Below, one piece after another: positions 3,480 through 61,934 of a stretch of 64,000 bases of DNA (its first letter is position 1; each line of letters starts with the position of its first letter). Below the pieces are notes generated by a model that saw only the letters and a list, made by a program, of their open reading frames with translations, did no database searches and was not told where the DNA came from. The DNA is from Clostridia bacterium. Its GTDB lineage: Bacteria; Bacillota; Clostridia; Oscillospirales; CAG-272. The stretch is from contig JAFQGP010000115.1 of the NCBI GenBank assembly GCA_017415485.1, positions 8,135-72,134 on the forward strand. The letters are read 5' to 3'. A program made the translations under genes and the position numbers.

Positions 3480-3611
3480 CGATCTTTGTTGCAATGAAAT
3501 CCGCCTTCGGCGGGTGAAATCGCGCGTTGCGCGATGAAATCGAGCTTCGCTCGGTGAAATCTTCGCCTTTGGCGAAGGTTTCGGAAGATTTTCTCGCGGG
3601 GCTCGAAAATC
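3465..3611. repeat. Hairpin-train element H1: 12-bp hairpin over the stop codon plus 4-5 GC hairpins separated by the word [AG]TGAAAT
   Basis: GCAACAAAGATC-TGAC-GATCTTTGTTGC, with the TGA stop in the loop. It is followed by aATGAAAT-ccgccttcggcgg, GTGAAAT-cgcgcgttgcgcg, ATGAAAT-cgagcttcgctcg and GTGAAAT-cttcgcctttggcgaag. Confidence 0.85.
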
Positions 3612-6595: not shown

Positions 6596-6627
6596 GCTAT
6601 TGAATTTTATCAAATTCAATCACTTTT

Positions 6628-6668
6628 TTGACAAAAGTATTGACAAATATTATAATATAATGTATAAT
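6628..6668 (+). promoter_or_regulatory. Two overlapping consensus sigma-70 promoters upstream of the surface-protein gene
   Basis: TTGACA 6628-6633 / N17 / TATAAT 6651-6656, and TTGACA 6640-6645 / N17 / TATAAT 6663-6668. Confidence 0.55.
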
Positions 6669-6699
6669 AATTTTATCAATCTATAAAAGGAGATTAATT

Positions 6700-8097: not shown

Positions 8098-8329
8098 GTG
8101 GACAGTGGTTAGTGGACAGTGGACAGAAAGATGCGAATGATAATTTAATTTGTATATTTGCTATCCATTGTACTAACTAATAATTTAATAGAAAAAACTC
8201 GGATATTATGACGCGTTTGCATCAAAATATCCGAGTTTTTCTATCGCTTATCCAAACGAAGTTAACAGTGCACAAAACAAAATTACTTGTCGCAACTTTC
8301 TGTTCACTGTCCACTAACCACTGTTCCCT
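8098..8329. repeat. Palindromic intergenic element E1 (GTGGACA-heptamer arms, AT-rich core with a bidirectional terminator)
   Basis: The left arm GTGGACAGTGGTTAGTGGACAGTGGACAGAAAG (8098-8130) is the reverse complement of 8296-8328 with 2-3 mismatches. The element fills essentially the whole gap between two converging stop codons (8097 and 8332). Confidence 0.9.
8192..8241. terminator. Bidirectional rho-independent terminator inside E1
   Basis: AAAAACTCGGATATT ... AATATCCGAGTTTTT, with an A-tract and a T-tract on the two sides. Confidence 0.75.
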
Positions 8330-8331
8330 TA

Positions 8332-9180
8332 CTAAGCCTTTCCCTCTTCAATAAGCTCAATAAGCTCCGCGGTGAGACCTTCGGTGTGGTGGCAAAGGCA
8401 GAGATCGGCAACCGCCTTGACACAATCAAGGGCGTTTGAAGGACAAACGGCGACGTCCGCAGCCGCGAGCATTGTCAGATCGTTCTCGTAGTCGCCGCAG
8501 GCATAGATCTTGACGGGCTTGCCAACCTTTTTCTCCACGTATTCGCGCAGAGCCGGGAGCATCGTCGCTTTTGTGGTATTGGGCGATTGGAATTCAAGAT
8601 ATGCCGCGCCGGATTTGCTTGTTTCGAATCTGCCGGGCCATTTTGCTTCGGCAGCTGAGCGGAATTCATCAATGCGCTCGTTTGATCCGCGAACGACGAG
8701 CTTGTACCAATCCGCGATCGAGACCCACTCCTCTTCGGGGAGTGTGAAGACCTTTGCGGGTGCAACTTTGTTCAGATCGCGGTCGACCTCCGGGCAACGT
8801 TCGCGCTGACCGGGTGAGGAAAGGAAGCCTTCCTCCACAGAGATCCTCGCGCCGAGGTCGGGGTATTCCTTGATCATATACTCAACAAGCTCCACTACGT
8901 GCTCGCGGTTCATCAGTCTGCCATCGATCATTTTGTCGGTGCGAAGGTCGCAAAGCATTGCGCCGTTACAACCGACAACGGGCGCGTTGACAAGGTCTGC
9001 CGCGTCGCGCCATTTGTGCTTGAGGTTGAGATTCGTTCTTCCCGTTGCGATAGTGAAATGACCTCCCTGAGCCTTGAGGCGCTCGACAGCTTCAAGATTG
9101 CGCTCGATTGGCGCGCCGTGATTGCCGAAAAAAGTGCCGTCAAGGTCGGTGACGATCAGAATATTACTTAAATCTGCCAT
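8332..9180 (-). CDS. Cof-type HAD-IIB family hydrolase (sugar-phosphatase-like)
   Basis: 282 aa. Motif I is VTDLDGTF. Cap-domain architecture and a C-terminal GDYENDLTM motif. Confidence 0.8.
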   Translation of the reverse strand: MADLSNILIVTDLDGTFFGNHGAPIERNLEAVERLKAQGGHFTIATGRTNLNLKHKWRDAADLVNAPVVGCNGAMLCDLRTDKMIDGRLMNREHVVELVEYMIKEYPDLGARISVEEGFLSSPGQRERCPEVDRDLNKVAPAKVFTLPEEEWVSIADWYKLVVRGSNERIDEFRSAAEAKWPGRFETSKSGAAYLEFQSPNTTKATMLPALREYVEKKVGKPVKIYACGDYENDLTMLAAADVAVCPSNALDCVKAVADLCLCHHTEGLTAELIELIEEGKA

Positions 9181-10614: not shown

Positions 10615-10657
10615 TTTGCTTTCCTTATTGTATACAAGAAGAATATTTTTCCAAAAA

Positions 10658-11016
10658 GCAAGTGCGAACAAAGCTTTCTGGGTGTCCCCTCATCACCCGC
10701 TGCGGCGGGAGCTTCTCCCAGGAGAAGCCTGGGGAACTGTGAGCTTCGTTTGATATTTCCAATTATTCATTTTTCATTATTCATTTGACCAATTTAGGTT
10801 TATAATGAATAATGAATAATTATTAATTGGCAAGAACACTTTTCTATACAATCGAAACCCAAGTAATATTAATTAACAAATTACATTCATTACTAATAAC
10901 GATAAGCTTCATTTAGATAATTCCAAATGAAGCTAACAGTGACCCCAAGGCTTCTCCTGGGAGAAGCTCCCGCCGCAGCGGGTGATGAGGGGACACCCAG
11001 AAGAATGTGTTAGCAC
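10658..11016. repeat. Long palindromic intergenic element E2 (arms about 95 bp, AT-rich core with a TTATTCA-word inner palindrome)
   Basis: The left arm GCAAGTGCGAACAAAGCTTTCTGGGTGTCCCCTCATCACCCGCTGCGGCGGGAGCTTCTCCCAGGAGAAGCC... recurs as its reverse complement at 10924-11016. The same arm family occurs at 32029 and 34919. Confidence 0.9.
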
Positions 11017-11048
11017 TATCTTTCAAAGAGCTCTAAAACAGATAAATT

Positions 11049-24489: not shown

Positions 24490-25560
24490 ATGGAAATGAA
24501 CATCGGCGCTAACATCAAGCGCTTACGAAATGAAAAAAATATTACACAAGAACAGCTTGCAACGGCAATGAACGTAAGCTGCGCCGCCGTCAGCAAATGG
24601 GAACGCGGCGAGACCTATCCCGACATCACGCTCCTTCAACCCCTCGCCTACTTTTTCGAGGTTACACTTGACGATCTTATGGGGTACGATCAGGAAAAGA
24701 TCAAAGCGAAGATCAATGAAGTTATTAACCTCTATAAAAAGCATTGGTTCTCGAAAAAGGGCCGCGAGATCATCGTCAAGGCATATCACGACTATCCAAA
24801 TGATTATAACATTATGCACTACTATATGTGGAATATCGGCGGAGATATGGCGGACAACGATCCCGCCGTGCTGATTGCCCATAAGGATGAATTTCTGTCG
24901 ATCTGCAATAAAATACTTGATGGCTGTACCGATGAAAGGATTCGCCTCAGCGCATGGAATATGCGTGCAAAGATACTCCATGCAGAAGGCAAAACGGACA
25001 AAGCCTTGGAGATTTATAAGGCTAAGTTTACAGACTGGTATGGAACATGCACTCAGAAGACAGAACAGTTATTTGCCAAAGACACAGACGAATATTATTT
25101 CCACGTTCAAAAGAATATGTATGAGCTTGTTGACTTTGCGGCAGACAAACTCGGCAGGACTGTATTCTTCAATCCTACACTTTCGATGGCAGAAAAGTCA
25201 GAACATGCATTGCATTGCGGCGATGTGATATTGGCTGCATTTGAAGATACGGGAGAAACGTTCTTCCTGATGCTTGCTCAATCCTTCCTCGGAAGAATTG
25301 AAAACGATCTGTACTATCGTGGCGGAACGGATGAGCAGGTCATTGCCGTTATGGATAAGAATCTATATGCGAAAAAAATGCTCCACGAACTGAGAGCGAA
25401 TAACGAAGCTTTAGATCATTCCTTTGACCGCTTCCCCGAAGATTCACGGGATAATCGTTTCAAATTCAATCTTGATTACCGTAGCAACGCTACGAAAGGC
25501 AGACGCGCCGAGCTGTTGGATAATCCGGAATACGTCAAGGTGCTCGAAAAATACAAATAA
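24490..25560 (+). CDS. XRE-family HTH regulator with a long helical-repeat (TPR-like) C-terminal domain
   Basis: 356 aa. HTH is IKRLRNEKNITQEQLATAMNVSCAAVSKWERG, followed by about 290 aa of helical repeats. GGAGG RBS. Confidence 0.75.
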   Translation: MEMNIGANIKRLRNEKNITQEQLATAMNVSCAAVSKWERGETYPDITLLQPLAYFFEVTLDDLMGYDQEKIKAKINEVINLYKKHWFSKKGREIIVKAYHDYPNDYNIMHYYMWNIGGDMADNDPAVLIAHKDEFLSICNKILDGCTDERIRLSAWNMRAKILHAEGKTDKALEIYKAKFTDWYGTCTQKTEQLFAKDTDEYYFHVQKNMYELVDFAADKLGRTVFFNPTLSMAEKSEHALHCGDVILAAFEDTGETFFLMLAQSFLGRIENDLYYRGGTDEQVIAVMDKNLYAKKMLHELRANNEALDHSFDRFPEDSRDNRFKFNLDYRSNATKGRRAELLDNPEYVKVLEKYK

Positions 25561-25572
25561 CAACATAAAAAT

Positions 25573-25599
25573 CCGCGCTCGCCTTTTCGGCGGGCGCGG
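25573..25599. terminator. Hairpin terminator between the converging regulator genes
   Basis: CCGCGCTCGCC-TTTT-CGGCGGGCGCGG (one mismatch), placed between the stops at 25560 and 25609. Confidence 0.6.
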
Positions 25600-25608
25600 G
25601 TAAATTAT

Positions 25609-26694
25609 TTAGCATTCCTCAATCATCTTCTTAAAATCTTCACGCTCGCGGAGAGGATCGAAAACACTCATGGTTTTGATTCTTTCGAGCCAAAGATCTG
25701 CATGAGGCGTGTATGGCAGAGGATCGCTATAATCGTCAGCATACTTATCGAGCATAAGGCAAGTGTATTCGCCCTTGCCTTGAGCCTTTACTCTGTCGTA
25801 TTCAACACCGTGTTTTTTGGCTTCCCACAGTTTCTCAACAGCCTTTGCGTGATCCCCGTCATGGAGCGCGATCTCTGCCTGCTTGAAGCAGATCATATAC
25901 ATCATGGCGTTAAATCCGTTAAAATTATCATCGGTAATGATGGCACGGATAATCTTTTCCTCGGTTTCAAGTGCAACACGGGTGCGATCATCCTCGATAT
26001 CACCAAAAAGCCACAAGCCGAAAAGATTATTTGCCAGTCTACCCAGTGAGTTTCTTATCATCTTTTGCCGATGGCGCAGTAACTCATCCCCGTGCAGACA
26101 TTGCAGCAGAGCATCATCGCGCGTCATTCCGATAGATTCCGGCAGCATTTCAGCATACTTTTTCGCCTCGTCATACATTTTCAAGCATCGATAATCATTA
26201 ACGATATCATATATCGTCGATCTTCTGAGTTTTTCATCCTCGCAATCCTCGAGTATCATCATATAATGCTTCAAAGAGCTCTCCATGTACTCTCTGAAAA
26301 GCTCGGGGGATTCCTTTTTGTGATTATTTGCAACATAAAACTCGGTTCTCGCAAGCCAGGAGAGATACTTGAACTCACCCGGATATTCGGCAACCGCCTG
26401 TGATGCAGTCTTATATTCCTCTTTTGGATCATCCGTCAGCCAGAAATTTCGGTATTCCGCATCAAAATAAGCCTTGCGCTCGTCAACCCTTTCTTCATTC
26501 AACCCAAGCAACTCATCCGCAGAAACATGGAAGAGCCTCGTCAAGGGCACGAGCATTGCAAGATCCGGGCTTGTGATACCGCATTCCCACTTCGATATCG
26601 CCTGATATGATACATTCAGATATTCCGCCATCTTTTCCTGGGTTAGATTGTTTTTCTTTCTCAAATCCTTGATTTTTTCGCCCAATGTCATCAT
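25609..26694 (-). CDS. XRE-family HTH regulator with a helical-repeat (TPR-like) C-terminal domain, paralogous to 24490-25560
   Basis: HTH is IKDLRKKNNLTQEKMAEYLNVSYQAISKWECG. The track start at 26700 is a GTG; the ATGs at 26694 and 26691 sit better relative to the GAGGTG RBS. Confidence 0.75.
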   Translation of the reverse strand: MMTLGEKIKDLRKKNNLTQEKMAEYLNVSYQAISKWECGITSPDLAMLVPLTRLFHVSADELLGLNEERVDERKAYFDAEYRNFWLTDDPKEEYKTASQAVAEYPGEFKYLSWLARTEFYVANNHKKESPELFREYMESSLKHYMMILEDCEDEKLRRSTIYDIVNDYRCLKMYDEAKKYAEMLPESIGMTRDDALLQCLHGDELLRHRQKMIRNSLGRLANNLFGLWLFGDIEDDRTRVALETEEKIIRAIITDDNFNGFNAMMYMICFKQAEIALHDGDHAKAVEKLWEAKKHGVEYDRVKAQGKGEYTCLMLDKYADDYSDPLPYTPHADLWLERIKTMSVFDPLREREDFKKMIEEC

Positions 26695-26826
26695 TTTCAC
26701 CTCACAAAAAATTTCGAATCCGGATTACGGTTATATTATATCAAAGGCAATGAAAAAAAGCAATAACTTGTTTTTTGCACAGAACTCAACCCGGAAGTGA
26801 GTTGGCGAATGCATTTTAAACTAAAT

Positions 26827-29321: not shown

Positions 29322-29412
29322 ATCAACCTCGCAAAAAATTTCGTTACACTATAATTATAATCTATTTTGCGACGAAATGTAACCCCTAAAAAGGTGGGAA
29401 ACTGGGAAATTA

Positions 29413-29713
29413 GTGGGCAGATCAGAGTGGACAGTGGACAGATCAGAGTGGACAGTGGACAGTGGACAGTGAACAGAAAGATGCGAATGATATTTTTATT
29501 TATCTTTTCTGTTAATTATTAAACAAATAATTTAATATATAAAACTCTCGGATATCTTGAATTCCTTCAAATATCCGAGAGTATTTTTTATTGCTTATTA
29601 CTCTTTAGTATAATACAAAAACTCTATGTTTTGCACAAAATTATTGCAGCAACCCGCATCTTTCTGTCCACTGTCCACTAACCACTGTCCACTCTTATCT
29701 GACCACTGTCCAC
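29413..29713. repeat. Palindromic intergenic element E3 (GTGGACA-heptamer arms, same family as E1)
   Basis: The left arm has (GTGGACA)n interspersed with GATCAGA and ends CAGAAAGATGCGAATGA as in E1. The right arm CTTTCTGTCCACTGTCCACTAACCACTGTCCAC is the exact reverse complement of the E1 left arm. Confidence 0.9.
29541..29589. terminator. Terminator hairpin in the E3 core
   Basis: ACTCTCGGATAT ... ATATCCGAGAGT followed by TTTTTT. It is homologous in position and sequence to the E1 core hairpin, with a TC/GA insertion pair in the stem. Confidence 0.7.
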
Positions 29714-29718
29714 TTTGC

Positions 29719-32028: not shown

Positions 32029-32423
32029 AGTGCGAACATAGACGCACTCGGTGTCCCCTCATCACCCGCTACGTCAGAACCCCAAAAACGCGCAAGCGCG
32101 TTTCCGGGAACCCGACGGCTGGAGCTTCTCCCAGGAGAAGCCTAAGGAAAGCTGTCGCTTTGAGCTAAATATTTCTCTGTTAGAGAAATGCTAAATTTTC
32201 GCTATGCAAAAGCTAAATACGCGCTTTGCGCGAGCTAAATATTCCGCCAAAGCGGAATGCAAAGGTAGAAATTTGCCAAGGCAAATTTCAATTTCATTTA
32301 ATTAATGATACGAATATTAGACAATACCAAACGAAGCTCACAGTAACCCCAGGCTTCTCCTGGAAGAAGCTCCCTCCGCAGAGGGTGATGAGGGGACACC
32401 CAGAAAGCTTTGTTCGCACTTGC
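32029..32423. repeat. Long palindromic intergenic element E4 (E2 arm family) with a central GCTAAAT hairpin train
   Basis: The arms GGTGTCCCCTCATCACCCGC...GGAGCTTCTCCCAGGAGAAGCC pair with their reverse complement at 32345-32423. The core at 32162-32292 has 5 hairpins separated by GCTAAAT. It is about 90% identical to E6. Confidence 0.9.
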
Positions 32424-32488
32424 TATTCTACTAAAATCGAAAATTTTCGCCTCGGCGAAAATTCACCTTAACTCTGCACTCTGAACTC

Positions 32489-33193
32489 TTAACTCTGCAC
32501 TATCTTTCGGATAATATGTCCCGCCATAATCAACCCTACCGCTCCCGGCACAAACGACAGGCTTCCCGGCGTATTTCTGCCGTTTTCGCTCTCAAGCCCT
32601 TGCGCCTTGATCGGCTCTTCGTCCGACCAGACGACGTCAAGCTTCTTGATACCTTTTTCCTTCATCTTCTTCCGCATAATTTTCGCAAGCGGGCAGACGC
32701 TCGTTTTGCTGATGTCGGATATGCGGAAACGCTCGGGATAAAGCTTGTTCCCCGCGCCCATCGAGGCAATAACGGGAACTCCCGCCGCATCTGCGCGGCA
32801 GATTAGCTCGACCTTTGCCGCGACGGTATCGACCGCGTCGGCAATGAAATCGAACTGCGAGAGGTCGATCTCGTCGGCATTTTCGGGCAGATAAAAGAGA
32901 TTGACGGGATGCACCTTACATTCGGGATTGATCGAAAGAATGCGCTCCGCCATAACCTCGGATTTTGGTCTGCCGACGGTATCCTGTGTCGCAATGATCT
33001 GGCGGTTTACGTTCGAGGTCGAAACCGTGTCGCCGTCAATGACTGTCAGCTCGCCGACCCCCGCGCGTGCCAAAGCCTCGCAAAGATGTCCGCCGACACC
33101 GCCAAGCCCGAAGACCGCAACGTGCGCCGATCTCAATCTGTTCACGCCCTCCTCGCCAAGCAAAGCCCGCGTGCGTGTATCGTCAAGTTGCAT
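32489..33193 (-). CDS. tcdA: tRNA threonylcarbamoyladenosine dehydratase (ThiF/HesA fold)
   Basis: 234 aa. Nucleotide-binding loop VFGLGGVGG, with TcdA/CsdL-like sequence. Confidence 0.85.
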   Translation of the reverse strand: MQLDDTRTRALLGEEGVNRLRSAHVAVFGLGGVGGHLCEALARAGVGELTVIDGDTVSTSNVNRQIIATQDTVGRPKSEVMAERILSINPECKVHPVNLFYLPENADEIDLSQFDFIADAVDTVAAKVELICRADAAGVPVIASMGAGNKLYPERFRISDISKTSVCPLAKIMRKKMKEKGIKKLDVVWSDEEPIKAQGLESENGRNTPGSLSFVPGAVGLIMAGHIIRKIVQS

Positions 33194-33215
33194 TTTGTCA
33201 CCTCATTTTGCCAAT

Positions 33216-33905
33216 TTATAACTCTGTCAAAACATCACCATTGAAATAATATATATTCTCTTTCTTATAACCGTAAAGCGAATCTTTTATACCGATGTGC
33301 GGCTCAAATGTAAAGAAACCGGTCTCGCTCAACTTGCGCTGATTACCTTTTTCGATATAAATTCGATCCGATTTCTTTCGTACTATGGAATGACCGAGAT
33401 TACCCAAGAAATCCAAATTGATAAAACCGTTGGAAGTTATATATTCATTCATATGATAATACAGTCCCTCAAAAGTGGTATTTCGATCAGCAAATCTCAG
33501 CAGTTCTTTATGAAGTTTTTCTTCCATAAGGAGTCCGTTTTTCCATTCAGAGTTTTGAATTACATCAATATTTTCAACAACCGCGCCATTTTCGATAATT
33601 ATTGTTCGTGCATAATCGCCCCATACAGATTCTTTTGAAGGACTCAAATCAATAGTAATAATATCACTATCTCCGATAGATTTATCGGCAGTTTTGTATT
33701 TCTTTCCCGAAACGGAAAGCGCTGTTTCATCCGATGAAAAGACAAAAGCGCCTACATCCCAATACCAAAATGAATCTGCTCCGAGCTCAAGCATTTTATT
33801 TTCGCATAAACTGCGAATATCAATAAGAGTCATTCCGGGCTTTATTTCTCCCTTTATATACTCCATCGTGAATTTCGCTATCTGTTGTACTTCTAAATTG
33901 GTCAT
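33216..33905 (-). CDS. M24-family metallopeptidase-fold protein (small, AT-rich gene)
   Basis: Start at MTNLEVQQ (33905); the upstream ORF extension reads through repeat E5. Motifs DLSP....WGDYARTI and GHSI... / FTFEPH resemble the pita-bread fold. Confidence 0.6.
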   Translation of the reverse strand: MTNLEVQQIAKFTMEYIKGEIKPGMTLIDIRSLCENKMLELGADSFWYWDVGAFVFSSDETALSVSGKKYKTADKSIGDSDIITIDLSPSKESVWGDYARTIIIENGAVVENIDVIQNSEWKNGLLMEEKLHKELLRFADRNTTFEGLYYHMNEYITSNGFINLDFLGNLGHSIVRKKSDRIYIEKGNQRKLSETGFFTFEPHIGIKDSLYGYKKENIYYFNGDVLTEL

Positions 33906-33934
33906 TTCTGTCCTTTCCGCAAATACAGACTTTG

Positions 33935-34154
33935 TCCTCCTCATCCACCACTGCCGTGGTCCCCCTTCCCCGCTGGGGAAGGCTTGTTGAGCGAGTGCTG
34001 ACATTGACTGTATGGGGTGATTTTGCAGTGCTTTTAGAAACGCTGGTAAATGCTCAATACTATTGCACTATACGATGTTCATAAGATCAAGTGAGACTAT
34101 AATTTAGCCTTCCCCAGCGGGGAAGGGGGACCACGGCAGTGGTGGATGAGGAGG
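33935..34154. repeat. Palindromic intergenic element E5 (same arm architecture as E2/E4/E6, different hairpin sequences)
   Basis: TCCTCCTCATCCACCACTGCCGTGGTCCCCCTTCCCCGCTGGGGAAGGC (33935-33983) pairs with its reverse complement at 34107-34154. Confidence 0.85.
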
Positions 34155-34347
34155 ACATTATCGCAGCAAATTGTATTCAGAAATCAAGTTGTAATGTAAT
34201 ATCGTTATAATTCTATCACAATTCCCCGAAATATGCAATAGAAATTTCAAAAGAGGTGCGTAAGTATGCAAAAAAATCTTTACAAGAGGGAAAAAATGGT
34301 GTATAATTATTCTGTATAAATATAAAATAATATTTTGAGGTGATAAT

Positions 34348-34899
34348 ATGCAAAGTATTGATATGACCGAGCGGCGCATTGACGGGCGCGAGGTCTATTC
34401 GGGCAAGATACTTCACGTTATGGTCGACCGTGTAACGCTTCCCGACGGCAAGGAGGCGACGCGCGAGTACGTCGGTCATCCCGGTGCGGTTTGCGTCGTT
34501 CCGATAAACGAAAAAGGCGAGGTGCTCTGCGTTCGTCAGTTCCGTTACACACACGGGCGCGTCTTCCTTGAAATTCCCGCGGGCAAGCTTGAGCCCGGCG
34601 AGACCGACCGACCCGCGGCGGCTCTGCGCGAGCTGCGTGAGGAAACGGGAGCCGTTTGCGAGACCTTGACTCACATCGGCGACTTCGTCCCCTCCCCCGC
34701 GATCCTCGGTGAGGTCATCTCGATGTATATTGCAGAGGGGCTTTCGATCGGCGAGACCGACCCCGATGACGACGAATTCATCGACGTTGAGGCAATTCCG
34801 CTCGACAAACTCGCCGAAATGTGCGTCTCGGGTGAGATAACCGATGGAAAAACTATCGCTGCGGTTCTTAAAGCGAAGTACATTTTTGATAAGAGATGA
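34348..34899 (+). CDS. NUDIX hydrolase, ADP-ribose pyrophosphatase type
   Basis: 183 aa. Nudix box GKLEPGETDRPAAALRELREETG. Confidence 0.85.
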   Translation: MQSIDMTERRIDGREVYSGKILHVMVDRVTLPDGKEATREYVGHPGAVCVVPINEKGEVLCVRQFRYTHGRVFLEIPAGKLEPGETDRPAAALRELREETGAVCETLTHIGDFVPSPAILGEVISMYIAEGLSIGETDPDDDEFIDVEAIPLDKLAEMCVSGEITDGKTIAAVLKAKYIFDKR

Positions 34900-34918
34900 T
34901 AATTGACTTTATCATTTA

Positions 34919-35285
34919 GCAAGTGCGAACAAAGCTTTCTGGGTGTCCCCTCATCACCCGCTACGTCAGAACCCCAAAAACGCGCAAGCGCGTTTCCGGG
35001 AACCCGACGGCGGGAGCTTCTCCCAGGAGAAGCCTAGGGAGTCTAACGCCTTGAGCTAAATATTTCTCTCTTAGAGAAATGCTAAATTTTTGCTATGCAA
35101 AAGCTAAATTCGCGCTTTGCGCGAGCTAAATATTCCGCTAAAGCGGAATGCAAAGGTAGAAATTTGCCAATGCAAATTTCAATTTAATAAATAATTCGAA
35201 GATTCGAGAATTCCAAACGAAGCTCACAGTAACCCCAGGCTTCTCCTGGGAGAAGCTCCCGCCGCAGCGGGTGATGAGGGGACAC
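34919..35285. repeat. Long palindromic intergenic element E6 (near-copy of E4, same orientation)
   Basis: Same arms as E4, and the same GCTAAAT hairpin train at 35053-35183. Confidence 0.9.
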
Positions 35286-35352
35286 CGTTTGTGCCCAATG
35301 AACACAAGTGAATATTCACTTTAACGATAAAAATTAATCAAGGAGTCCCAAA

Positions 35353-38532: not shown

Positions 38533-38844
38533 AATGCAAAATGTAGGTGAATTTTCTCGCTTCGCTCAAAAATTTTCATTTGAATACAAGCAGCTTAAAG
38601 TTTTGATCGAACTTTTTCAAAAGTTCGCAGAGCTCGAGACAGCGTCTCGATTCAATGCAAAAGCTTCAGCTTTTGCCTCCGTGCTTCAAAATGGCGAAGC
38701 TTCGCTTCGACATTTTGGACAGAGTCAATACTTCCCGATTGTAGGGAAGTGCAGCTCTTGCGGTTTTCCGAAGGAAAATGGAGGCGTAAGCCGAGAAGCA
38801 AGAGTTGCAACTTGCCGTAGGCAAGTATTTGCGCTCTGTCACCC
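38521..38844. repeat. Structured repeat H2 (left module, copy A)
   Basis: It begins with (C/T)AAAATG x3 across the murQ stop. Positions 38549-38844 are homologous to 42879-43101, and the module ends GCGCTCTGTCACCC. It carries extra hairpins inserted at 38755-38830. Confidence 0.85.
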
Positions 38845-38904
38845 TTTGCTGAATAAAATTATTTAGCAAATTGGCTTTACATCTCTCTATTTTGGAGAAT
38901 CCCT

Positions 38905-39114
38905 ATGAAAAAGAACCTTATCTGGAACATTATCTTAATAATCGGCATCATCCCTTTCATACTTCCGTTCGCTTTCGGCATATACAAAATTTCGATCGAA
39001 AGCTGGACGATGTTCGATTGGCTCGTTATGTACTCGTACATTTTTTGGCCCACTTATATCGTCGGCGCGGTAGTTATCGCGATTTCGATCATTGGAAGAT
39101 TCATAAAAAAGTGA
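38905..39114 (+). CDS. Small hydrophobic membrane protein (69 aa), the AT-rich cargo of element copy A
   Basis: MKKNLIWNIILIIGIIPFILPFAF..., with 2-3 TM segments. AT-rich codon usage unlike its neighbours. The stop lies inside the first hairpin of H3. Confidence 0.5.
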   Translation: MKKNLIWNIILIIGIIPFILPFAFGIYKISIESWTMFDWLVMYSYIFWPTYIVGAVVIAISIIGRFIKK

Positions 39115-39275
39115 AGGAGCAAAACCTCCCCGCGGGGAGGTTTTACTCCTTCCAAACAGCCTGCGGGGCGCAGTCTGTTTGAAGCGCAAGGGAATTTCGC
39201 CCTCTGCGGAGGGCGACTTAAGGCTCTGCCTTAAGAAACCGCAACCTTTTGAAAAAGGTTGACCAAAACTTTGAT
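39111..39275. repeat. Structured repeat H3 (right module, copy A)
   Basis: GTGAAGGAGCAAAACCTCCCCGCGGGGAGGTTTTACTCCTTC... contains five hairpins and is homologous to 44837-45001 with compensatory stem changes. Confidence 0.9.
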
Positions 39276-42843: not shown

Positions 42844-43101
42844 GTTGCTAGTTGCTAGACGCTAGTTGCTAGTTGAAGGTTAATTTCCGCCCTGATCGGG
42901 CGGAAATTTTCATTCTAATTAAAGAGCAGGAAAGTTTTCGTCCACCTTTTTCAAAAGGTGGCGGAGCACGAGGCAGAGCCTCGGACTAATGCGAAAGCTT
43001 CAGCTTTCGCTTCTGCGCTTCAAAATGACGAAGCTCTGCTTCGGCATTTTGGACAGAGTCAACACTTCCCGAATGTAGGGAAGTGTTGCGCTCTGTCACC
43101 C
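42844..43101. repeat. Structured repeat H5 (left module, copy B)
   Basis: It begins with GTTGCTA-type heptamers x5 directly after the scfB stop, continues with sequence homologous to 38549-38844, and ends GCGCTCTGTCACCC. Confidence 0.9.
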
Positions 43102-43121
43102 CTTATTATTTAATATTCAAA

Positions 43122-43164
43122 GGCACACTTTTCGGTAAAAGCCGATTGGTGTGCCAACTTTTTT
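43122..43164 (+). terminator. Rho-independent terminator (plus-strand T-tail)
   Basis: GGCACAC...GTGTGCC followed by TTTTTT. Confidence 0.65.
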
Positions 43165-43489
43165 ATTCAAGTGAATTCAGATATACTTCAAGCAGTTGCT
43201 TAGCAGTTTCGCGATTCTTCTCAGGGAGTAAATCAACTCGTTCGGCAAGTGTTGCGCCGATTGGCACAATTATCTGATCTTCAACAAAAATATCGTTCGG
43301 AGTAATGCCCAACGCCTCGCATATTCTAAGCACACTCTCGATGCGCATATTAACGCTTCCTCTTTCGATATCAGCGTAAGTGCGATCAGAAAGTCCCGCC
43401 TCCTCCGCAACCTGTGCCTGCGTAAGCCCTTTTTGTTTTCTTATGGCATACAATTTATTTCCTATTTCCATCAAATCAAAAACAAGCAT
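43163..43489 (-). CDS. Small XRE-family HTH repressor-like protein
   Basis: 108 aa. HTH is LYAIRKQKGLTQAQVAEEAGLSDRTYADIERG. AT-rich. It is divergent from a consensus promoter. Confidence 0.8.
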   Translation of the reverse strand: MLVFDLMEIGNKLYAIRKQKGLTQAQVAEEAGLSDRTYADIERGSVNMRIESVLRICEALGITPNDIFVEDQIIVPIGATLAERVDLLPEKNRETAKQLLEVYLNSLE

Positions 43490-43537
43490 CTTAATTCCCC
43501 TTTTTATTATATATAGGAATTATAGCACCATTTTATC

Positions 43538-43566
43538 TTGACAAAAAGGAGTTTCAGTGCTATAAT
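43538..43566 (+). promoter_or_regulatory. Perfect consensus sigma-70 promoter with a flanking inverted repeat (candidate operator)
   Basis: TTGACA (43538-43543), N17, TATAAT (43561-43566). The inverted repeat TTATAGCAC (43519-43527) / GTGCTATAA (43556-43564) overlaps the -10 element. Confidence 0.7.
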
Positions 43567-43608
43567 ATAGGAAGTAAGATTCTTATTTGTTTTCAAGGAG
43601 GTATTACA

Positions 43609-43803
43609 ATGAAAAAATATGTTCTTAATGAATCTACAGGTACGCTACACATTCTCGGTTATTGTACACATTCGACACATAAGTTTGACAATGCAATTAC
43701 ATTCGAAACAGAACAAGAAGCATACAAATTTGCTGGCAAGCATATTAAGCTTTGCAAGCTATGTGAAAGAAAAAAAGAAGCAATCTTAAAAGAACAAAAC
43801 TAA
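43609..43803 (+). CDS. Small Cys/His-containing protein (64 aa), possible zinc-binding
   Basis: AGGAGG RBS. Contains LHILGYCTHSTH ... CKLCERKK. AT-rich. I recognise no family. Confidence 0.5.
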   Translation: MKKYVLNESTGTLHILGYCTHSTHKFDNAITFETEQEAYKFAGKHIKLCKLCERKKEAILKEQN

Positions 43804-43831
43804 TTATGCATTAAAGAAAGGAATATAATCC

Positions 43832-44563
43832 ATGAAAAAATTTATTGCAATATTATTAGCGGTAATTATGTGTTTTTCCCTAGTTTCATGCGGAAAGAAA
43901 GTGGCTTTTGAATTAACACAAAATGCATTTTTTGAGATAAGCAAGTCTGTAGATATTTTGAAGCAGATCAGCAATGACATTATTAGCGCGTGGACGATAG
44001 GTATTTATGATGAATCAACATTAAAACACTATGGTGATGGATTTGATTGGTTATGTGAAAACGTTTCATTATCAAGAGATGATATGCTTGATGGATTAGC
44101 ATATTATAAAAGTCTTGGTATTCAACCCGAATACGTAGAAATTTTATGTGATCCGGAATTAGGATTATATAATGATTATTATGAATACCATAAAGAAGCA
44201 GTACGAAAACTTTATGATATGTATTTCTATACCAGTTATGAGGAAACAGGTATATTAAATGTTTACGATAAAGTGTTCACAGGTTGTGTAATGTTGGTCG
44301 TATACTCTTACGAGGCGAACGGAAAGCTCAGCGAAATCGAACAATCTCTTACATCCGCTGAAACAAAAATCAAAGAATTGAGCAATAAGCATTCAAACTA
44401 TGAGCATTACGAAAACATAAAAGAATATTATTCTACTGCTAGGACTATGTATAATTTCTGCAAATTGCCCACTGGAACATTAGAGCAAGCTAAGAGCAAC
44501 ATAAACGATTATAAAAACACAGCAGATTCGTGTTATAACAGTATGTATTACTTTTTCCAGTAG
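43832..44563 (+). CDS. Lipoprotein of unknown function (243 aa)
   Basis: Lipobox FSLVSCG. AT-rich, helical, Tyr/Glu-rich. Confidence 0.6.
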   Translation: MKKFIAILLAVIMCFSLVSCGKKVAFELTQNAFFEISKSVDILKQISNDIISAWTIGIYDESTLKHYGDGFDWLCENVSLSRDDMLDGLAYYKSLGIQPEYVEILCDPELGLYNDYYEYHKEAVRKLYDMYFYTSYEETGILNVYDKVFTGCVMLVVYSYEANGKLSEIEQSLTSAETKIKELSNKHSNYEHYENIKEYYSTARTMYNFCKLPTGTLEQAKSNINDYKNTADSCYNSMYYFFQ

Positions 44564-44599
44564 ACACTGCAACAAAATTTTCATTCTATGCAGTAAAGT

Positions 44600-44836
44600 T
44601 GACGATATATCAAGAGCCCTCCCGCTTGCGGGAGGGTTGGGAGGGGAGTCAGCGGCGCGCGAAATTTGAGCACCAAAACCAAACTCAAAGCGAAATATAA
44701 TAAAAATGTGAAAATCCGCCGCGGCGGATTTTTCCTTTACGTTCCGCGGTGCGGAACATATCGCATCGCGAAGCGATATATCGTATCCGCAGGATATATC
44801 GCGCCGAAGGCATATCGTGCGCCCTGCGGGCGCAGG
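44600..44836. repeat. Hairpin-train element H6a (ATATCG word)
   Basis: ccctcccgcttgcgggaggg and aaatccgccgcggcggattt, followed by gttccgcggtgcggaac-ATATCGC-atcgcgaagcgat-ATATCGT-atccgcaggat-ATATCGC-gccgaaggc-ATATCGT-gcgccctgcgggcgc. Confidence 0.85.
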
Positions 44837-45001
44837 GTGAAGGAGCAAAAATCTCCCGCAAGGGGAGATTTTACTCCTTCCGAACCGTCGACGGGGCGTC
44901 GCCGGTTCGAAGCACAAGGAAATTTCGCGCTCTGCGGAGCGCGACTTAAGGCTCTGCCTTAAGAAACCGCAAACTTTTGAAAAAGTTTGATCAAAACTTT
45001 T
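44837..45001. repeat. Structured repeat H6b (right module, copy B)
   Basis: Collinear with 39111-39275. Linkers are identical (TTACTCCTTCC, CTTAAGGCTCTGCCTTAAGAAACCGCAA) and the stems differ by paired substitutions. Confidence 0.9.
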
Positions 45002-45024
45002 CCGCTGATATAGTTAAATTGTTC

Positions 45025-58352: not shown

Positions 58353-59987
58353 TCAGTTTTCTCTTCTCTTTGCAACAACTGCAACTCCGCAAAGGGAGAT
58401 AACAGCAACAACAGCGAAGATGAGAGCGGAGTCGCCGGTGGGAACGGGATCTGCAGGAACTTCGGGCTCGGTGATAACGGGATCAAGCTTGCCCTCGGGA
58501 TCCGAGATAATGAGTCCCTTGTAGATGTTGATATCCTTGTACTCTGCAACAAGGCTCTTGTTGTGGAGGTAGAAGCCTACACAAACCTGGAAACCGGACT
58601 CGTGAGGATAAGGAGTGCCATCGGTAGCCTTGGTGGTGTTGGTCATATCGATAACGTTGTAGGAGATCCACTTGCCTTCGGTGTTGAGGTAGTAAATGGT
58701 AGCCTGGTAACCGTGCATCTCAACGCGGAAGGTTGCGTAACCGTCTGCATCGTGGCCGAGGTCTTCAACAGGAACATACTCCTTGCCGGGAGTGTTGATG
58801 TTTGTGATCTTGGTGGAACCGTGCTCGGTTGCGAAGGAACCGGTCTGGAAGTTACCGTAGATATTGAAGGAGTTGTTGAAGGGATGGAGGGTAGGAACTG
58901 CGAAGCAGAAACCGGTGTTCTTTGCGCCGGTCTTTACCTTCCACTCAGTGGTGTATCTGGTCTCGGAGTTGATCTCAAGGCCTTCAACGATAGAACCGTA
59001 GTATGTACCCTTTTCTGCGGAGCCGTCCTGCTCGATCTTGATGTAGTCCTTATCAGCGGGATCAAGAGTGATGTTGAACTTTTCGCCGTTAGCAGCAAGG
59101 AAACGTGCGGAGAAGCCGGTATCCTTTCTCGAGAAATCGGGGGTAAAGAGAATGTCGCCGGTCTTAGCCTTATCGTAACCGGTTACGGAAGCACCCTCAA
59201 CGTAGTAGTCGGGGTAAGTGGGGTTCTTAACGGTGTTGCCTTCGTAAACAACAGCATCCTTGATGGTGATAGCTGCGCCCGGGTTGTAGAGGTATGCGGA
59301 GAGACCGAAGTTGGGAGCAACCTCAAGAAGACCGGTGTTGAATGCATCATACTCGTCGATGTATACGTTGTTGATGAATACCTTAACGTTTGCACCGGTA
59401 ACTACGAAATCGATGTCAACGAAGCCCTCAGCGTCAACTGCGGAGAGGTACTTTGCGTCGGTAACGTAAGCATCGCCATAGAAAATGGAACCGATGGACT
59501 TACCGCCTGCACCGTAGCTCATTACGTGACGGATGTTGGGACAACCGTAGTAGCCAACAAGAGATTTGTAACCAAGGTCAAGAAGATACTGAGCCTCGGT
59601 GTTGGTGGGCATGTTGATGAACACACCTGCGTTGCCGGAAGCGAGCTTACCGTCGGTATCGGTGTAAGCAACTGCCATCTTCATAGAGAAGGTGTAGTTC
59701 TTGCCCTCGCCGTAGGTGAGACCCTTGATTGCGCCGCCCCAGAATGCACGGCCTGCAGCAGTACCTGCATAGGTAACGGTTGCGGACTTGCCGTCATCGG
59801 AAACGGTTGTTGCGAGAGTTCCGTCGCCCTTGAGGAGACAGAAATCTGCGGGAGCGTACTTGTCGTCGCCCTTGAAGTTGACTTCATAGAGAACGTCGCC
59901 TTCCTTAGCGGAAGCGGTGATTCCCATAGCAGCAACAAGCGCGAGGATCATTGTGAGAGAAAGAATTGCGCTGAGGATCTTTTTCAT
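58353..59987 (-). CDS. Secreted surface protein (beta-sandwich/lectin-like, function unknown) with a PTGDSAL/TM/KRREN sorting signal
   Basis: Signal peptide MKKILSAILSLTMILALVAAMGITASA. Ends DPVPTGDSALIFAVVAVISLCGVAVVAKRREN. It is a paralogue of the next gene. Confidence 0.8.
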   Translation of the reverse strand: MKKILSAILSLTMILALVAAMGITASAKEGDVLYEVNFKGDDKYAPADFCLLKGDGTLATTVSDDGKSATVTYAGTAAGRAFWGGAIKGLTYGEGKNYTFSMKMAVAYTDTDGKLASGNAGVFINMPTNTEAQYLLDLGYKSLVGYYGCPNIRHVMSYGAGGKSIGSIFYGDAYVTDAKYLSAVDAEGFVDIDFVVTGANVKVFINNVYIDEYDAFNTGLLEVAPNFGLSAYLYNPGAAITIKDAVVYEGNTVKNPTYPDYYVEGASVTGYDKAKTGDILFTPDFSRKDTGFSARFLAANGEKFNITLDPADKDYIKIEQDGSAEKGTYYGSIVEGLEINSETRYTTEWKVKTGAKNTGFCFAVPTLHPFNNSFNIYGNFQTGSFATEHGSTKITNINTPGKEYVPVEDLGHDADGYATFRVEMHGYQATIYYLNTEGKWISYNVIDMTNTTKATDGTPYPHESGFQVCVGFYLHNKSLVAEYKDINIYKGLIISDPEGKLDPVITEPEVPADPVPTGDSALIFAVVAVISLCGVAVVAKRREN

Positions 59988-60037
59988 AATCAGATTCCTT
60001 TCTTTATTTTTCGGTCATACCGAATTGATACAATATA

Positions 60038-60066
60038 ATAATATCATTTTTATTCTTATTTGTCAA
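60038..60066 (-). promoter_or_regulatory. Promoter of 58353-59987 (followed by a conserved leader hairpin at 60010-60024)
   Basis: On the minus strand: TTGACA, N17, TATTAT. The leader is TGTATCAATTCGGtatgaCCGAAA. Confidence 0.55.
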
Positions 60067-60086
60067 TAGTAAATTACATTTTTCTA

Positions 60087-60116
60087 TAAAAAGACCGCCT
60101 CACGAGGAGGCAGTCT
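60087..60116 (-). terminator. Terminator after 60137-61855
   Basis: On the minus strand: AGACTGCCTC-ctcg-tGAGGCGGTCT followed by TTTT. Confidence 0.65.
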
Positions 60117-60136
60117 TGATTATGTTGATGAATTTA

Positions 60137-61855: not shown

Positions 61856-61905
61856 AATTTTCTTTCCTTTCAAAAATTTCGGCTTTGCCGAATTGATACA
61901 TAATA

Positions 61906-61934
61906 ATGATACCACTTTTGTGCGAATTTGTCAA
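61906..61934 (-). promoter_or_regulatory. Promoter of 60137-61855 (followed by a conserved leader hairpin at 61878-61892)
   Basis: On the minus strand: TTGACA, N17, TATCAT. The leader is TGTATCAATTCGGcaaagCCGAAA. Confidence 0.55.

Follow-up and report, generated by a model that had tools for sequence, protein, structure and literature searches.

What are E2, E4 and E6, three palindromic elements lying between genes in the 64-kb stretch of clostridial DNA analysed here (the window), and how have they come to be copied? The reading to which we lean, tentatively and with somewhat less than even confidence, is that they are structured DNA repeats of a non-autonomous kind, palindromic mosaics that lie between genes and stand to DUF559 proteins much as REPINs do to RAYT. 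Their mode of spread is something we infer.

Palindromic elements of the window

E2, E4 and E6 lie where the first-pass annotation had placed them, and the inverted arms that it described as shared are present in the window sequence: GGTGTCCCCTCATCACC has six exact occurrences, one per arm (0.07 expected), and GAGCTTCTCCCAGGAGAAGCC also occurs six times (0 expected). The flanking genes, for an M42 peptidase, ThiF/TcdA, an M24 peptidase, a NUDIX protein and an MFS transporter, are those named earlier as well. Folding of the three elements far exceeds that of shuffled sequences (z from -13 to -24), and because independent metagenome assemblies carry them at 100% identity they are not assembly artefacts.

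E2 (10658..11020) is a complete family-1 element in the ileS/lspA interval, identical in strains L215 and L216. It runs from outer module A through an arm, module X, an AT-rich core, X' and the inverse arm to outer module A'. The core holds the inner palindrome of TTATTCA words reported before, at 10751-10785 against 10804-10838. The 80-nt arms (10655-10734 and 10944-11023) are 90% complementary. The left arm core (10681..10731, plus strand; E=2.8e-6 with our covariance model R1) comprises GGTGTCCCCTCATCACC (10681-10697), a first hairpin, hp1, CCCGC-TGCG-GCGGG (10696-10709), and a second, hp2, GCTTCTCC-CA-GGAGAAGC (10711-10728); the right arm core (10948..10997, minus strand) is the same module and also matches R1.

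E4 (32029..32425) and E6 (34919..35286), both complete family-1 elements, have the same orientation and are 91% identical over 372 nt, in line with the earlier estimate of about 90%. E4 comes just after the tcdA terminator and 5' of the M42 peptidase gene, and it has an orthologue in locus L059; E6 occupies the interval between nudF and the MFS transporter gene. In the left arms of both (32050..32142 and 34942..35034, plus strand) the loop of the CCCGC/GCGGG hairpin hp1 is enlarged by the 45-nt hairpin insertion already described (32071-32115 and 34963-35007, plus strand). This insertion is optional, being missing from orthologous copies in related genomes, L059 for E4, where the alignment breaks at 32070/32116, and the strain variant L070 for E6. 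The cores (32150..32289 and 35041..35180, plus strand) are arrays of short hairpins with GCTAAAT spacers; the spacers, four in number, stand as first described, whereas the count of five hairpins becomes six when the first, AAGC-nnnn-GCTT, is included. A comparison of 16 copies of the array, that of E4 among them, finds compensatory changes at 8 pairs. The right arm core of E4 (32351..32400, minus strand; R1 E=5.9e-5) has CCCTC/GAGGG as its hp1, discordant with the left arm, and that of E6 (35237..35286, minus strand) matches R1 at E=2.8e-6. The outer modules of E6 are of type A on the left and type B (GGGCACAAACGG) on the right.

E5 (33933..34157), previously set apart as a separate element, belongs to the same superfamily as family 3. 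Its 52-nt arms (33933-33984, plus strand; 34106-34157, minus strand) are 100% complementary, match R1 at E=6.8e-4 each and consist of TGTCCTCCTCATCC, hp1 ACCAC/GTGGT and hp2 CCTTCCCC/GGGGAAGG.

The arm module and its kinship

The arms had been taken to form one very long stem of about 95 bp, but the conserved and selected unit is the single arm with its two local hairpins. It measures about 50 nt and consists of CCCCTCATC, then hp1 with its variable stem, then the conserved hp2 (CTTCTCC/GGAGAAG). In E4, L050, L053, L059 and L061 the two arms differ in hp1 (CCCGC/GCGGG versus CCCTC/GAGGG), and either variant finds its complement inside the arm that carries it. R1 was built from 14 soil-metagenome arms only, the metagenome loci having been retrieved by a pattern in which one arm of every locus had CCCCTCATC and CTTCTCCC fixed. 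It matches the arms of E2, E4, E6 and neighbouring E5 in the window (E=3e-6 to 7e-4) and detects 196 arms in 656 kb. Folding and covariation, suggested earlier as a check, give a clear result in 149 distinct arms (alignment A3, which was fitted to the covariance model): both hairpins covary strongly. Paired cells amount to 96.1%, against 83.9% in shuffles and 57-67% in slid-register controls, and both sides have changed in 236 cells versus 69 in shuffles, a figure that none of 500 shuffles reaches. Among 91 hp1 hairpins there are 60 distinct stems, with loops TTC, TGC, TAC or TGCG; the stem sequence is thus free and the loop conserved as TNC(G). Compensatory changes in DNA palindromes can also arise mutationally, by template switching and without selection.

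The segment CCCTCATC mirrors the strand of hp2, which makes the arm a mirror repeat like those of BoxC/PIT/TMECO, a potential intrastrand triplex, with hp1 inserted in the second loop; the complementary strand reads CTTCTCCC-loop-GGGAGAAG-hp1-GATGAGGG. The triad rule (G·G-C, A·A-T, T·A-T) is obeyed at 95.2% of 1331 positions in register and at 46-51% when shifted. Positions h3 and m7 covary (14 C/C, 132 T/T; Fisher p=1e-16), which may reflect two lineages instead of many independent events, and triple covariation is incomplete, since hp2 position h6 has changed in 23 arms with no change at the third-strand position. For the TMECO motifs, Holder et al. (2015, PMC4666352) did not find a stable triplex in vivo.

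The literature on BoxC, the PIT elements and the TMECO intrastrand-triplex motifs, known from E. coli and further Proteobacteria, includes Hoyne and Maher 2000 and Holder et al. 2015 (PMC4666352). No named repeat family had been recognised in the elements at first; the arms in fact form part of a superfamily that spans phyla and is related both to the BoxC/PIT/TMECO triplex motif (PMC4666352) and to intergenic repeats that abound in rhizobia. Set beside the BoxC/PIT "triplex motif" known from E. coli and rhizobia, the arm is a variant that bears a hairpin. The two share three stems, one C-rich, one of purines and a second purine stem as its mirror repeat; both are strictly intergenic, lie on either strand, often form inverted pairs, occupy loci that are hypervariable between strains and have no known mobility genes. 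Short-loop motifs of the BoxC type also occur in the same loci as the arms (L223, L224, L226) and in the window, where a solitary canonical BoxC/TMECO-type mirror repeat at 44615..44650 (minus strand; R1 E=0.059 and reading by eye) has the plus-strand form CCCTCCC-gcttgc-GGGAGGG-tt-GGGAGGGG. The arms differ in their stems, CTTCTCCC/GGGAGAAG/GATGAGGG in place of the consensus CCCTCNCCC/GGGNGAGGG, and in their second loop, a covarying hairpin of 14-25 nt (59 nt in the left arms of E4 and E6) where BoxC/PIT/TMECO motifs have 3 nt. With a first loop of 3-6 nt those motifs follow a short-loop consensus, CCCTCNCCC...GGGNGAGGG...GGGNGAGGG, to which the arms do not conform, and the published BoxC/TMECO search, with loops of 1-6 nt, was blind to the arms because their second loop is a 14-25-nt hairpin. 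Moreover, motif pairs here enclose AT-rich cores of 150-250 bp and carry extra outer modules, and the host is a Firmicute.

The soil-type arm occurs at 1024 places in 309 PLSDB records and is abundant and intergenic in replicons of Rhizobium, Sinorhizobium, Shinella and Azospirillum; it may be the same as a named RIME, Sm or Bru-RS element. Mosaic palindromic repeats have been described in these alpha-proteobacteria (RIMEs, Sm-repeats, A/B/C palindromes; Bru-RS1/2 in Brucella) (PMC2573895).

Covariation of arm and array hairpins would also fit a cis-acting structured RNA, in which transcribed arms and arrays would stabilise mRNA, serve as processing sites (the long arm-arm duplex could be a substrate of RNase III) or insulate transcription between genes, and the repeat would spread through its usefulness in 3' UTRs. 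All copies are intergenic, E2 lies within the ileS-lspA-rluD gene string and E4 directly 3' of the tcdA terminator, the predicted RNA folds are very stable (z=-14.7 and -24.1), and a palindrome yields the same RNA arm order in either direction of transcription. This reading is nevertheless improbable. G-U pairs are nearly absent from the arm hairpins (about 10 of 2131 cells), the mismatches (AC 18, GT 8, other 34) have no clear wobble or strand bias, and no U-tracts follow 3' of the arm hairpins. Array orientation is independent of gene orientation, for the arrays of E4 and E6 are on one strand and their flanking genes on opposite strands. RNA does not adopt the purine-motif triplex (PMC4666352), and PIT elements had no promoter or terminator activity in earlier work that the same paper cites. 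DNA rather than RNA is thus, we infer, the active form of the arms. Against Rfam the elements have no match at gathering score, only sub-threshold matches to generic long-hairpin miRNAs on both strands. The only Rfam match in the window, Gut-1, lies elsewhere than the elements.

Mosaic copies at variable loci

The elements form a multi-copy family, as had been supposed: the arm 17-mer marks 52 loci, spread over seven MAGs of gut Clostridia. Of these loci 23 are contigs of a single MAG, and many of the matches lie at contig ends. There are 29 full copies, and every copy is intergenic. Between MAGs with no more than 80-93% identity in the flanking genes, the 49-nt arm core shows essentially no variation. 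The remainder is a mosaic: the outer module is one of two, the inner module X or Y and the core one of at least four types, with optional insertions of 45 nt in the hp1 loop and about 75 nt in the hp2 loop (L008). Outer modules are interchangeable, even between the two ends of one element (E6, L019, L025), and E2 and L063 have common flanks and different cores. Arms also stand singly, in tandem or inside-out, and among the arm pairs counted 47 are inside-out and 21 outside-in.

The loci themselves are polymorphic. Filled and empty sites, a comparison recommended at the outset, were found for a family-2 element present in L057 and missing in L004 and L035. The M24 gene and E5 are missing together in L068 and L070, as are the gene at 6700-8097 and E1 in L063 and L010; in L059 the sites that match the positions of E5 and E6 hold other family members, one with inside-out arms. 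This variability of the window is consistent with the hypervariability of TMECO/BoxC loci, which are intergenic, sometimes carry inverted pairs and differ between strains (Holder et al. 2015, PMC4666352). Every strain sampled has the same E2, which thus gives no sign of ongoing mobility within the species.

The MITE-like geometry seen at first, with terminal inverted repeats, small size and many copies, is real. It is what would be expected of a classical MITE, derived from an insertion sequence by internal deletion and moved in trans when a transposase, DDE or other, binds the outer inverted repeats (TTAATAAGCRAGTGCGAACA...): the elements are 250-400 bp long, intergenic and contig-breaking, and their presence varies between species. 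In size, inverted ends, multi-copy intergenic occurrence and long predicted stem-loop they resemble the Correia/NEMIS, RUP, BOX and bcr1 MITEs. A MITE is nonetheless a poor candidate. Unlike bacterial MITEs, the elements lack target-site duplications, both at the 29 copies and in the comparison of L057 with L004 and L035, and they lack a matching transposase, no recurrent transposase-like ORF being found in about 400 kb around the 52 copies or among the window genes scanned; both absences had been noted from the window. In addition, the termini are exchanged, even within one element, conservation resides in the internal, subterminal structured modules instead of the ends, and arms are also found singly, in tandem and inside-out.

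Near-perfect inverted repeats some 200 bp apart should permit inversion, and in L025, judged by the arm that has the 45-nt insertion, the array runs the other way from those of E4, E6 and L017. An invertible switch, with the arms as recombination sites and a core that flips promoters or terminators to control its neighbours, is still very improbable. Every independent assembly has one core orientation (E2 in two full copies, E4 and E6 in six to eight contigs), no invertase or recombinase gene lies nearby, and the E4 and E6 cores hold no promoter-like site. The arrangement in L025 can be explained by modular exchange, because the 45-nt insertion is also found on the other arm type (L051, L032).

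REP, BIME and REPIN sequences offer another comparison with the mosaic elements. They too are short and structured; single units, inverted doublets and mosaic clusters joined by variable linkers are all found, in intergenic positions that are often 3' of terminators or within operons, and in the REPIN/RAYT system many non-autonomous copies likewise stand against one vertically inherited protein gene flanked by units. The units are different: REP is an imperfect palindrome of 20-40 nt with a GTAG head, whereas the arm has CCCCTCATC, two hairpins and a mirror motif in about 50 nt with no GTAG head, and the elements are three to four times longer than REPINs. Integron attC sites and gene cassettes were also considered and set aside, as GTTRRRY cores are absent from the element ends (read by eye) and no integrase is encoded among the window genes scanned. 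An integron-like point is that gene-plus-palindrome units are present or absent between strains.

DUF559 genes beside the arms

A search for a cognate enzyme, with IS200/IS605 TnpA-type transposases as an example, had been suggested; no Y1 (HUH) transposase gene was seen in the sampled loci, and the candidate that emerges by position is instead a DUF559 protein of the Vsr-like PD-(D/E)XK type. This also separates the system from RAYT, an HUH/Y1 transposase. The proteins encoded beside arms match PF04480 (E=2e-35 to 4e-39), and their closest solved structure is 3HRL, an uncharacterised endonuclease-like protein of Neisseria. We know of no activity or target of DUF559 proteins. The same PD-(D/E)XK clade includes the Vsr endonuclease, a nicking repair enzyme, and the Vsr-like homing endonuclease I-Bth0305I (PMC3424549).

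The association was found from either side. In 1.23 Mb of loci selected for arms, all six DUF559 genes have an arm within about 100 nt upstream. With DUF559 genes as the starting point, flanking arms were found at all four gut Clostridia loci, and seven of seven model matches fell within 200 nt of the gene. Altogether at least one motif lies within about 100 nt at each of the 17 DUF559 loci examined, which come from soil bacteria, rhizobia, Azospirillum, E. coli (ycjD), Neisseria and gut Clostridia; among cultured bacteria Shinella, Azospirillum, S. meliloti, Sinorhizobium and E. coli ycjD are positive and Neisseria is weak. At L206 an ORF stands between two perfectly complementary inverted arms, in the order arm'-ORF-arm. 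The lineage studied here has a complete family-1 element directly upstream of a conserved DUF559 gene, which overlaps a conserved methyltransferase gene by 14 nt and looks like a vertically inherited chromosomal gene. All eight contigs that carry it break in or beside the element. In the 64-kb window no DUF559 gene was found. Arm side and orientation relative to the gene vary between loci, a pattern that adjacency fits better than a defined transposon structure. The link is absent from the BoxC/TMECO paper (PMC4666352).

Such adjacency could have another cause if the arms are passive, structure-prone DNA that persists and is reshuffled by slippage, template switching and RecA-dependent recombination with no dedicated enzyme. 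The arm might then regulate or insulate the DUF559 gene, or DUF559 might serve in repair, as a nuclease that keeps damage at such structures in check. TMECO motifs have been tied to local genomic instability with no mobility genes found (Holder et al. 2015, PMC4666352). In PLSDB the arms (1024 places) far outnumber DUF559 genes (33 places in 30 records), the overlapping methyltransferase gene is of a housekeeping type, and target-site duplications are lacking. We regard this explanation as unlikely, since passive decay would not preserve the 49-nt arm core across species with 7-20% gene divergence or one module from Proteobacteria to Clostridia, nor would it fix the hp1 loop (TNC) alongside freely varying stems. 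The invariant core, the cross-phylum module and the fixed loop suggest recognition by a conserved factor.

The reading of E2, E4 and E6 as structured DNA repeats tied to DUF559 would then work as follows. The arm is an independent 50-nt module, two inverted copies of which bracket interchangeable AT-rich cores. In principle a third strand could join its hairpin to give an intrastrand triplex of the purine motif, hp1 lying in the second loop. Modules would be recognised as folded DNA, whether hairpin, cruciform or triplex, extruded in replication or under supercoiling. The recogniser would be the small DUF559 nuclease, encoded by one gene per genome beside such a module; from that position it would be expected to bind or cut the arms. 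Nicking at a module might stimulate recombination, gene conversion or template switching, and modules would be copied, homogenised and reshuffled with no target-site duplications, in analogy to REP/REPIN sequences and RAYT.

A wider proposition, possible though on the unlikely side, is that DUF559/YcjD Vsr-like nucleases are the trans-acting partner of a very widespread class of bacterial repeats on record for decades, with the BoxC/PIT/TMECO motifs of enterobacteria, the abundant rhizobial intergenic palindromes and the gut Clostridia mosaics alike among them, which would make theirs a second partnership of the REPIN/RAYT kind. The adjacency of DUF559 genes gives this repeat superfamily a candidate partner enzyme that can be tested. 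If the proposition is true, a PD-(D/E)XK nuclease that recognises folded mirror-repeat or hairpin DNA would drive local recombination and the hypervariability of these loci.

Palindromic elements and the structure of their arms

The intergenic elements E2 (10658-11020), E4 (32029-32425) and E6 (34919-35286) share inverted arms and lie where the first-pass annotation had placed them. The arm words GGTGTCCCCTCATCACC and GAGCTTCTCCCAGGAGAAGCC occur six times each, once per arm, against 0.07 and 0 occurrences expected by chance, and the 80-nt arms of E2 are 90% complementary. E4 and E6 are co-oriented and 91% identical, as had been estimated by eye. The further details described for this pair also hold: in both left arms a 45-nt insertion occupies the loop of the CCCGC/GCGGG hairpin (hp1), and both cores are arrays of short hairpins separated by the spacer GCTAAAT. 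The neighbours are housekeeping genes (ileS, lspA, rluD, M42 peptidase, ThiF/TcdA, M24 peptidase, NUDIX and MFS transporter), among which the reported tcdA, M24 peptidase and nudF flanks are found, and E4 starts immediately 3' of the tcdA terminator hairpin. The whole window is identical to ENA metagenome contig k141_1724263 (ERZ28019142), and the elements are 99-100% identical across independent assemblies, so they are not assembly artefacts. Rfam searches of the elements and 19 related loci, at gathering and permissive thresholds, returned generic long-hairpin miRNA noise only. The sole Rfam family in the window is Gut-1 RNA (RF01706) at 3492-3565, with 75.6 bits against a gathering score of 50. 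A hammerhead or k-turn reading of UGAUGAG was rejected, as the essential C3 and Rfam support are both absent.

The arm runs in the order (outer module), GG, NGNC, CCCCTCATC, hp1, hp2, CT, where hp2 is the second hairpin (CTTCTCC/GGAGAAG). Compensated changes give the hp1 stem the forms CCCGC/GCGGG, CCCTC/GAGGG and CCCGT/ACGGG. Five elements, E4 among them, have discordant forms in their two arms, each pairing inside its own arm, so it is local pairing that is kept and not the arm-arm stem. The same architecture with different stems is seen in E5 (33933-34157) and in further elements from metagenome-assembled genomes (MAGs). Counted independently, 91 hairpins contain 60 distinct hp1 stems, and their loops are conserved as TNC or TGCG.

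Covariation was measured on a model-fitted alignment of 149 distinct arms, for which retrieval held two words constant in one arm of each locus and left hp1 and the 3' half of hp2 unconstrained. Pairing is present in 96.1% of cells, compared with 83.9% after shuffling and 57-67% with the partners slid, and both sides have changed in 236 cells compared with 69 in shuffles; none of 500 shuffles reaches the observed pairing or change values. The arm hairpins thus covary. An earlier MAFFT alignment (46 diverse arms) misaligned the 3' strand of hp2 and was replaced by a gap-free 14-sequence seed with model-based realignment. Pairing of TCCCC with a downstream GGGGA within one arm was rejected, because the downstream side varies uncompensated.

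The very long stem proposed in the first-pass annotation stands in part. E2, E4 and E6 fold far below shuffled controls (z -13 to -24), which any palindrome is expected to do; the conserved unit, however, is the single arm with its two local hairpins. A rival reading takes the elements as passive structure-prone DNA. The two hairpins and the mirror motif of the arm are under strong structural constraint.

Dispersal and mosaic make-up in gut Clostridia

A C-rich 17-mer of the arm occurs at 64 loci in one scan of species-representative genomes. Fifty-two of these belong to seven MAGs of uncultured Eubacteriales/Clostridia from human and ruminant guts, so the elements are multi-copy and not single-genome oddities; 23 of the loci are contigs of one MAG. 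Many matches lie at contig ends, as is typical of repeats. In IMG/VR, searched for phage carriage, the 17-mer gave two single matches.

Twenty-nine complete copies were extracted for comparison. The 49-nt arm core is near-invariant even between MAGs whose orthologous genes are just 80-93% identical. The rest is modular: outer modules are of two alternatives, TTAATAAGCRAGTGCGAACA... or ...GGGCACAAACGG, with one of each on some elements such as E6, there are inner modules X and Y and at least four core types, and loop insertions are optional in either arm hairpin. Orthologous sites differ accordingly in content. The E4 ortholog at locus L059 is without the 45-nt insertion; in L070, a strain variant of E6, both this insertion and the entire right arm are missing, and the flanks of E2 at L063 enclose a different core. 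At the E5 and E6 positions L059 has other family members, one with inside-out arms, and truncated relics are also present. Filled and empty forms of one site are seen: a related element at L057 is absent in two other species, and comparison of these sites reveals no visible target-site duplication. ORF clustering near the copies gave no recurrent ORF, only spurious repeat-crossing frames, and near the elements the window has no gene for a transposase or recombinase; its sole real paralogous pair (24490-25560, 25609-26700) encodes HTH_3 proteins. The earlier observation that transposase and target-site duplication are lacking is thereby borne out. MITE-like geometry is a fair description of the elements, yet a classical MITE, like an inverton, failed a defining test. 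The reshuffling would rather proceed by recombination or gene conversion than by cut-and-paste transposition.

Other variable or repeated segments were noted. The AT-rich M24 peptidase gene and E5 (33195-34204) behave as an indel: at L068 and L070 both are missing, and 41 unrelated bases separate tcdA from the upstream region of nudF. At L081 an E5-like arm with a different hp1 lies directly beside the tcdA start. A second gene-plus-palindrome unit (6596-8337) comprises a 465-aa gene without a Pfam match (6700-8097) and the palindrome E1 (8075-8351). It is missing at the orthologous site of L063, and at L010 its place is taken by 540 nt of unrelated sequence bearing a separate hairpin array; the gene is paralogous to those at 1-1287 (running off the window start) and 58353-61915. 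E1 and E3 (29412-29717) form a separate palindromic family composed of repeated GTGGACAG words; complementarity of the arms between the two loci reaches 100%, and the family is unrelated to the CCCCTCATC arms. Hairpin arrays also follow genes outside the palindromic elements (L032 3990-4250; L010 2590-2740; window 44700-44960). Each has a short spacer that stays constant (GTTAAGA, GTGATATT, GTGAAAT or GCTAAAT) and GC-topped stems that vary, and they resemble local terminator hairpins (GTGAATTT-stem). Hairpin number varies between orthologous sites, and L011 repeats a spacer word without hairpins. At L008 (2260-2340) an insertion of ~75 nt occupies the hp2 loop; a 77-nt mini-element at L022 (1126-1322) contains the reverse complement of part of it within a palindrome reaching 50 nt into both flanks. 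This arrangement is a genuine nested palindrome or else a snap-back artefact of the assembly. Repeated intergenic segments at 38570-39272 and 42904-45006 flank a decarboxylase and radical-SAM region, with direct repeats of 79-84% identity and inverted repeats with AAAGTTTTGATCGAACTTTTTCAAAAGTTCGC words. The HTH_3 pair (24490-26700) consists of convergent genes (356 and 363 aa, domain N-terminal) in a low-GC (43%) stretch adjoining a DUF4143/AAA_14 ATPase gene.

Relation to the BoxC/PIT/TMECO repeats

Catalogues of BoxC, PIT and triplex-motif repeats, and of the mosaic intergenic repeats of rhizobia, go back to the 1990s; to our knowledge, neither group has an established function, way of spreading or associated protein. 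Scanning metagenomes for the loose pattern CCCCTCATC-N14-40-CTTCTCCC gave, among the matches listed, many soil and other GC-rich contigs in which the motif forms inverted pairs, mostly inside-out and ~46 nt apart. A covariance model (R1) was built from 14 environmental arms alone. It recovers the two arms of E2 and the right arm of E6 at E=2.8e-6, the right arm of E4 at 5.9e-5 and the two arms of E5 at 6.8e-4; across the 656 kb of loci fetched, its matches number 196 arms. In PLSDB, E2 and a soil inverted pair had no BLAST match at strict thresholds, and a single 50-nt soil-type arm at a relaxed E-value matched 1024 intergenic places in 309 replicons, chiefly of Rhizobium, Sinorhizobium, Azospirillum and Shinella. 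Literature searches with sequence strings returned primers only.

Near E. coli ycjD and in rhizobial loci, R1 also picks shorter motifs, CCCCTCACCC-TAA-CCCTCTCCCC-loop-GGGGAGAGGG, which are BoxC/PIT/TMECO "intrastrand triplex" repeats. The TMECO rule is 5'-CCCTCNCCC N3-6 GGGNGAGGG N3 GGGNGAGGG-3' (Holder et al. 2015, PMC4666352). Such motifs are intergenic, on either strand and at times in inverted pairs, at loci unusually rearranged between strains; the triplex forms in vitro and not detectably in vivo, and mobility genes were looked for near the E. coli motifs and none found (PMC4666352). Copy number also differs between E. coli strains, for instance 1 against 29 TMECO copies. On its complementary strand the arm reads CTTCTCCC-loop-GGGAGAAG-hp1-GATGAGGG, where the final block mirrors the purine stem. 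The purine-motif triad rule holds at 95.2% of positions in register versus 46-51% out of register. At one stem position the base changes together with its partner in the third strand (T/T in 132 arms, C/C in 14, p=1e-16), and at another such covariation is absent. The arm is therefore a variant of the known motif, with a covarying hairpin in place of the 3-nt second loop, and it falls outside the 1-6 nt loop limit of the published TMECO search. Canonical short-loop mirror repeats occur in the same lineage as the hairpin-bearing arms, in the window at 44615-44650 (type CCCTCCC-GCAAGC-GGGAGGG-TT-GGGAGGGG) and at L070 1640-1665 and L011 2590-2615. The elements, which the first-pass annotation could not assign to a named repeat family, are thus no orphans: the family represents a novel, expanded form within a known class of repeats whose function is unexplained.

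The evidence favours a role of the pairing at the DNA level. Cis-acting RNA is a rival, and the elements may have a role in transcripts that read through them; against it, G-U pairs are nearly absent (~10 of 2131 cells), the arm hairpins have no U-tracts, E4 and E6 are co-oriented though their contexts are transcribed oppositely, and purine-motif triplexes are not formed in RNA (PMC4666352). Mismatches (AC 18, GT 8, other 34) give no convincing wobble bias, the AC-versus-GT difference being weak.

DUF559 as a candidate partner

At two soil loci, inverted arms enclose a 115-123-aa ORF that belongs to DUF559 (PF04480, E=2e-35 and 4e-39). When all ORFs in the 1.23 Mb of loci fetched were searched with a profile, six DUF559 genes were recovered, each with an arm within ~100 nt upstream; the one in MAG SGB_169 (L017, 6793-7137) is separated by 45 nt from a family-1 element. 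Sampling that started from the protein added four gut Clostridia loci of 5.4 kb, all with flanking arms, where seven of seven model matches fall within 200 nt of the DUF559 gene; at one (L206) the order is arm'-ORF-arm with perfectly complementary arms. On eight contigs encoding the closest homologue (P0002), a complete family-1 element lies directly upstream or the contig breaks inside or beside the element. Among cultured bacteria, arms also lie beside DUF559 in Shinella, Azospirillum lipoferum, S. meliloti pSymB, a second Sinorhizobium and E. coli, where three BoxC-like motifs are just downstream of ycjD and remain together with it in 3332 complete genomes. The DUF559 gene adjoins such a motif in every locus examined, from four phyla or classes, with weak arm evidence at the Neisseria locus.

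Among the PD-(D/E)XK nucleases, DUF559 falls in the Vsr clade, of which a homing endonuclease is another member (PMC3424549); the structure nearest to DUF559, 3HRL, is uncharacterised. The first-pass annotation had suggested looking for a cognate transposase or nuclease, with IS200/IS605 TnpA-type enzymes in mind; no gene of that type was seen in the sampled loci, and the candidate by position is DUF559. In this lineage its gene overlaps a downstream methyltransferase gene (PF05175 MTS) by ~14 nt, followed by a HAD hydrolase gene (L017 6793-7885; L205 2501-3590; L227 242-1379), a conserved order suggesting that it is vertically inherited rather than mobile. In the papers searched, mentions of DUF559 come with no link to repeats, and the connection is apparently unreported so far.

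The best-supported interpretation of these analyses is a non-autonomous structured DNA repeat whose arms would serve as recognition modules and which would stand to the single-copy DUF559 nuclease gene as REPIN to RAYT, with DUF559 possibly acting on the arms. Gut Firmicutes carry a BoxC-type module in an expanded, hairpin-bearing form that builds 360-400-bp palindromes; metagenome assemblies break up at these elements, which also mark hypervariable sites between genes.
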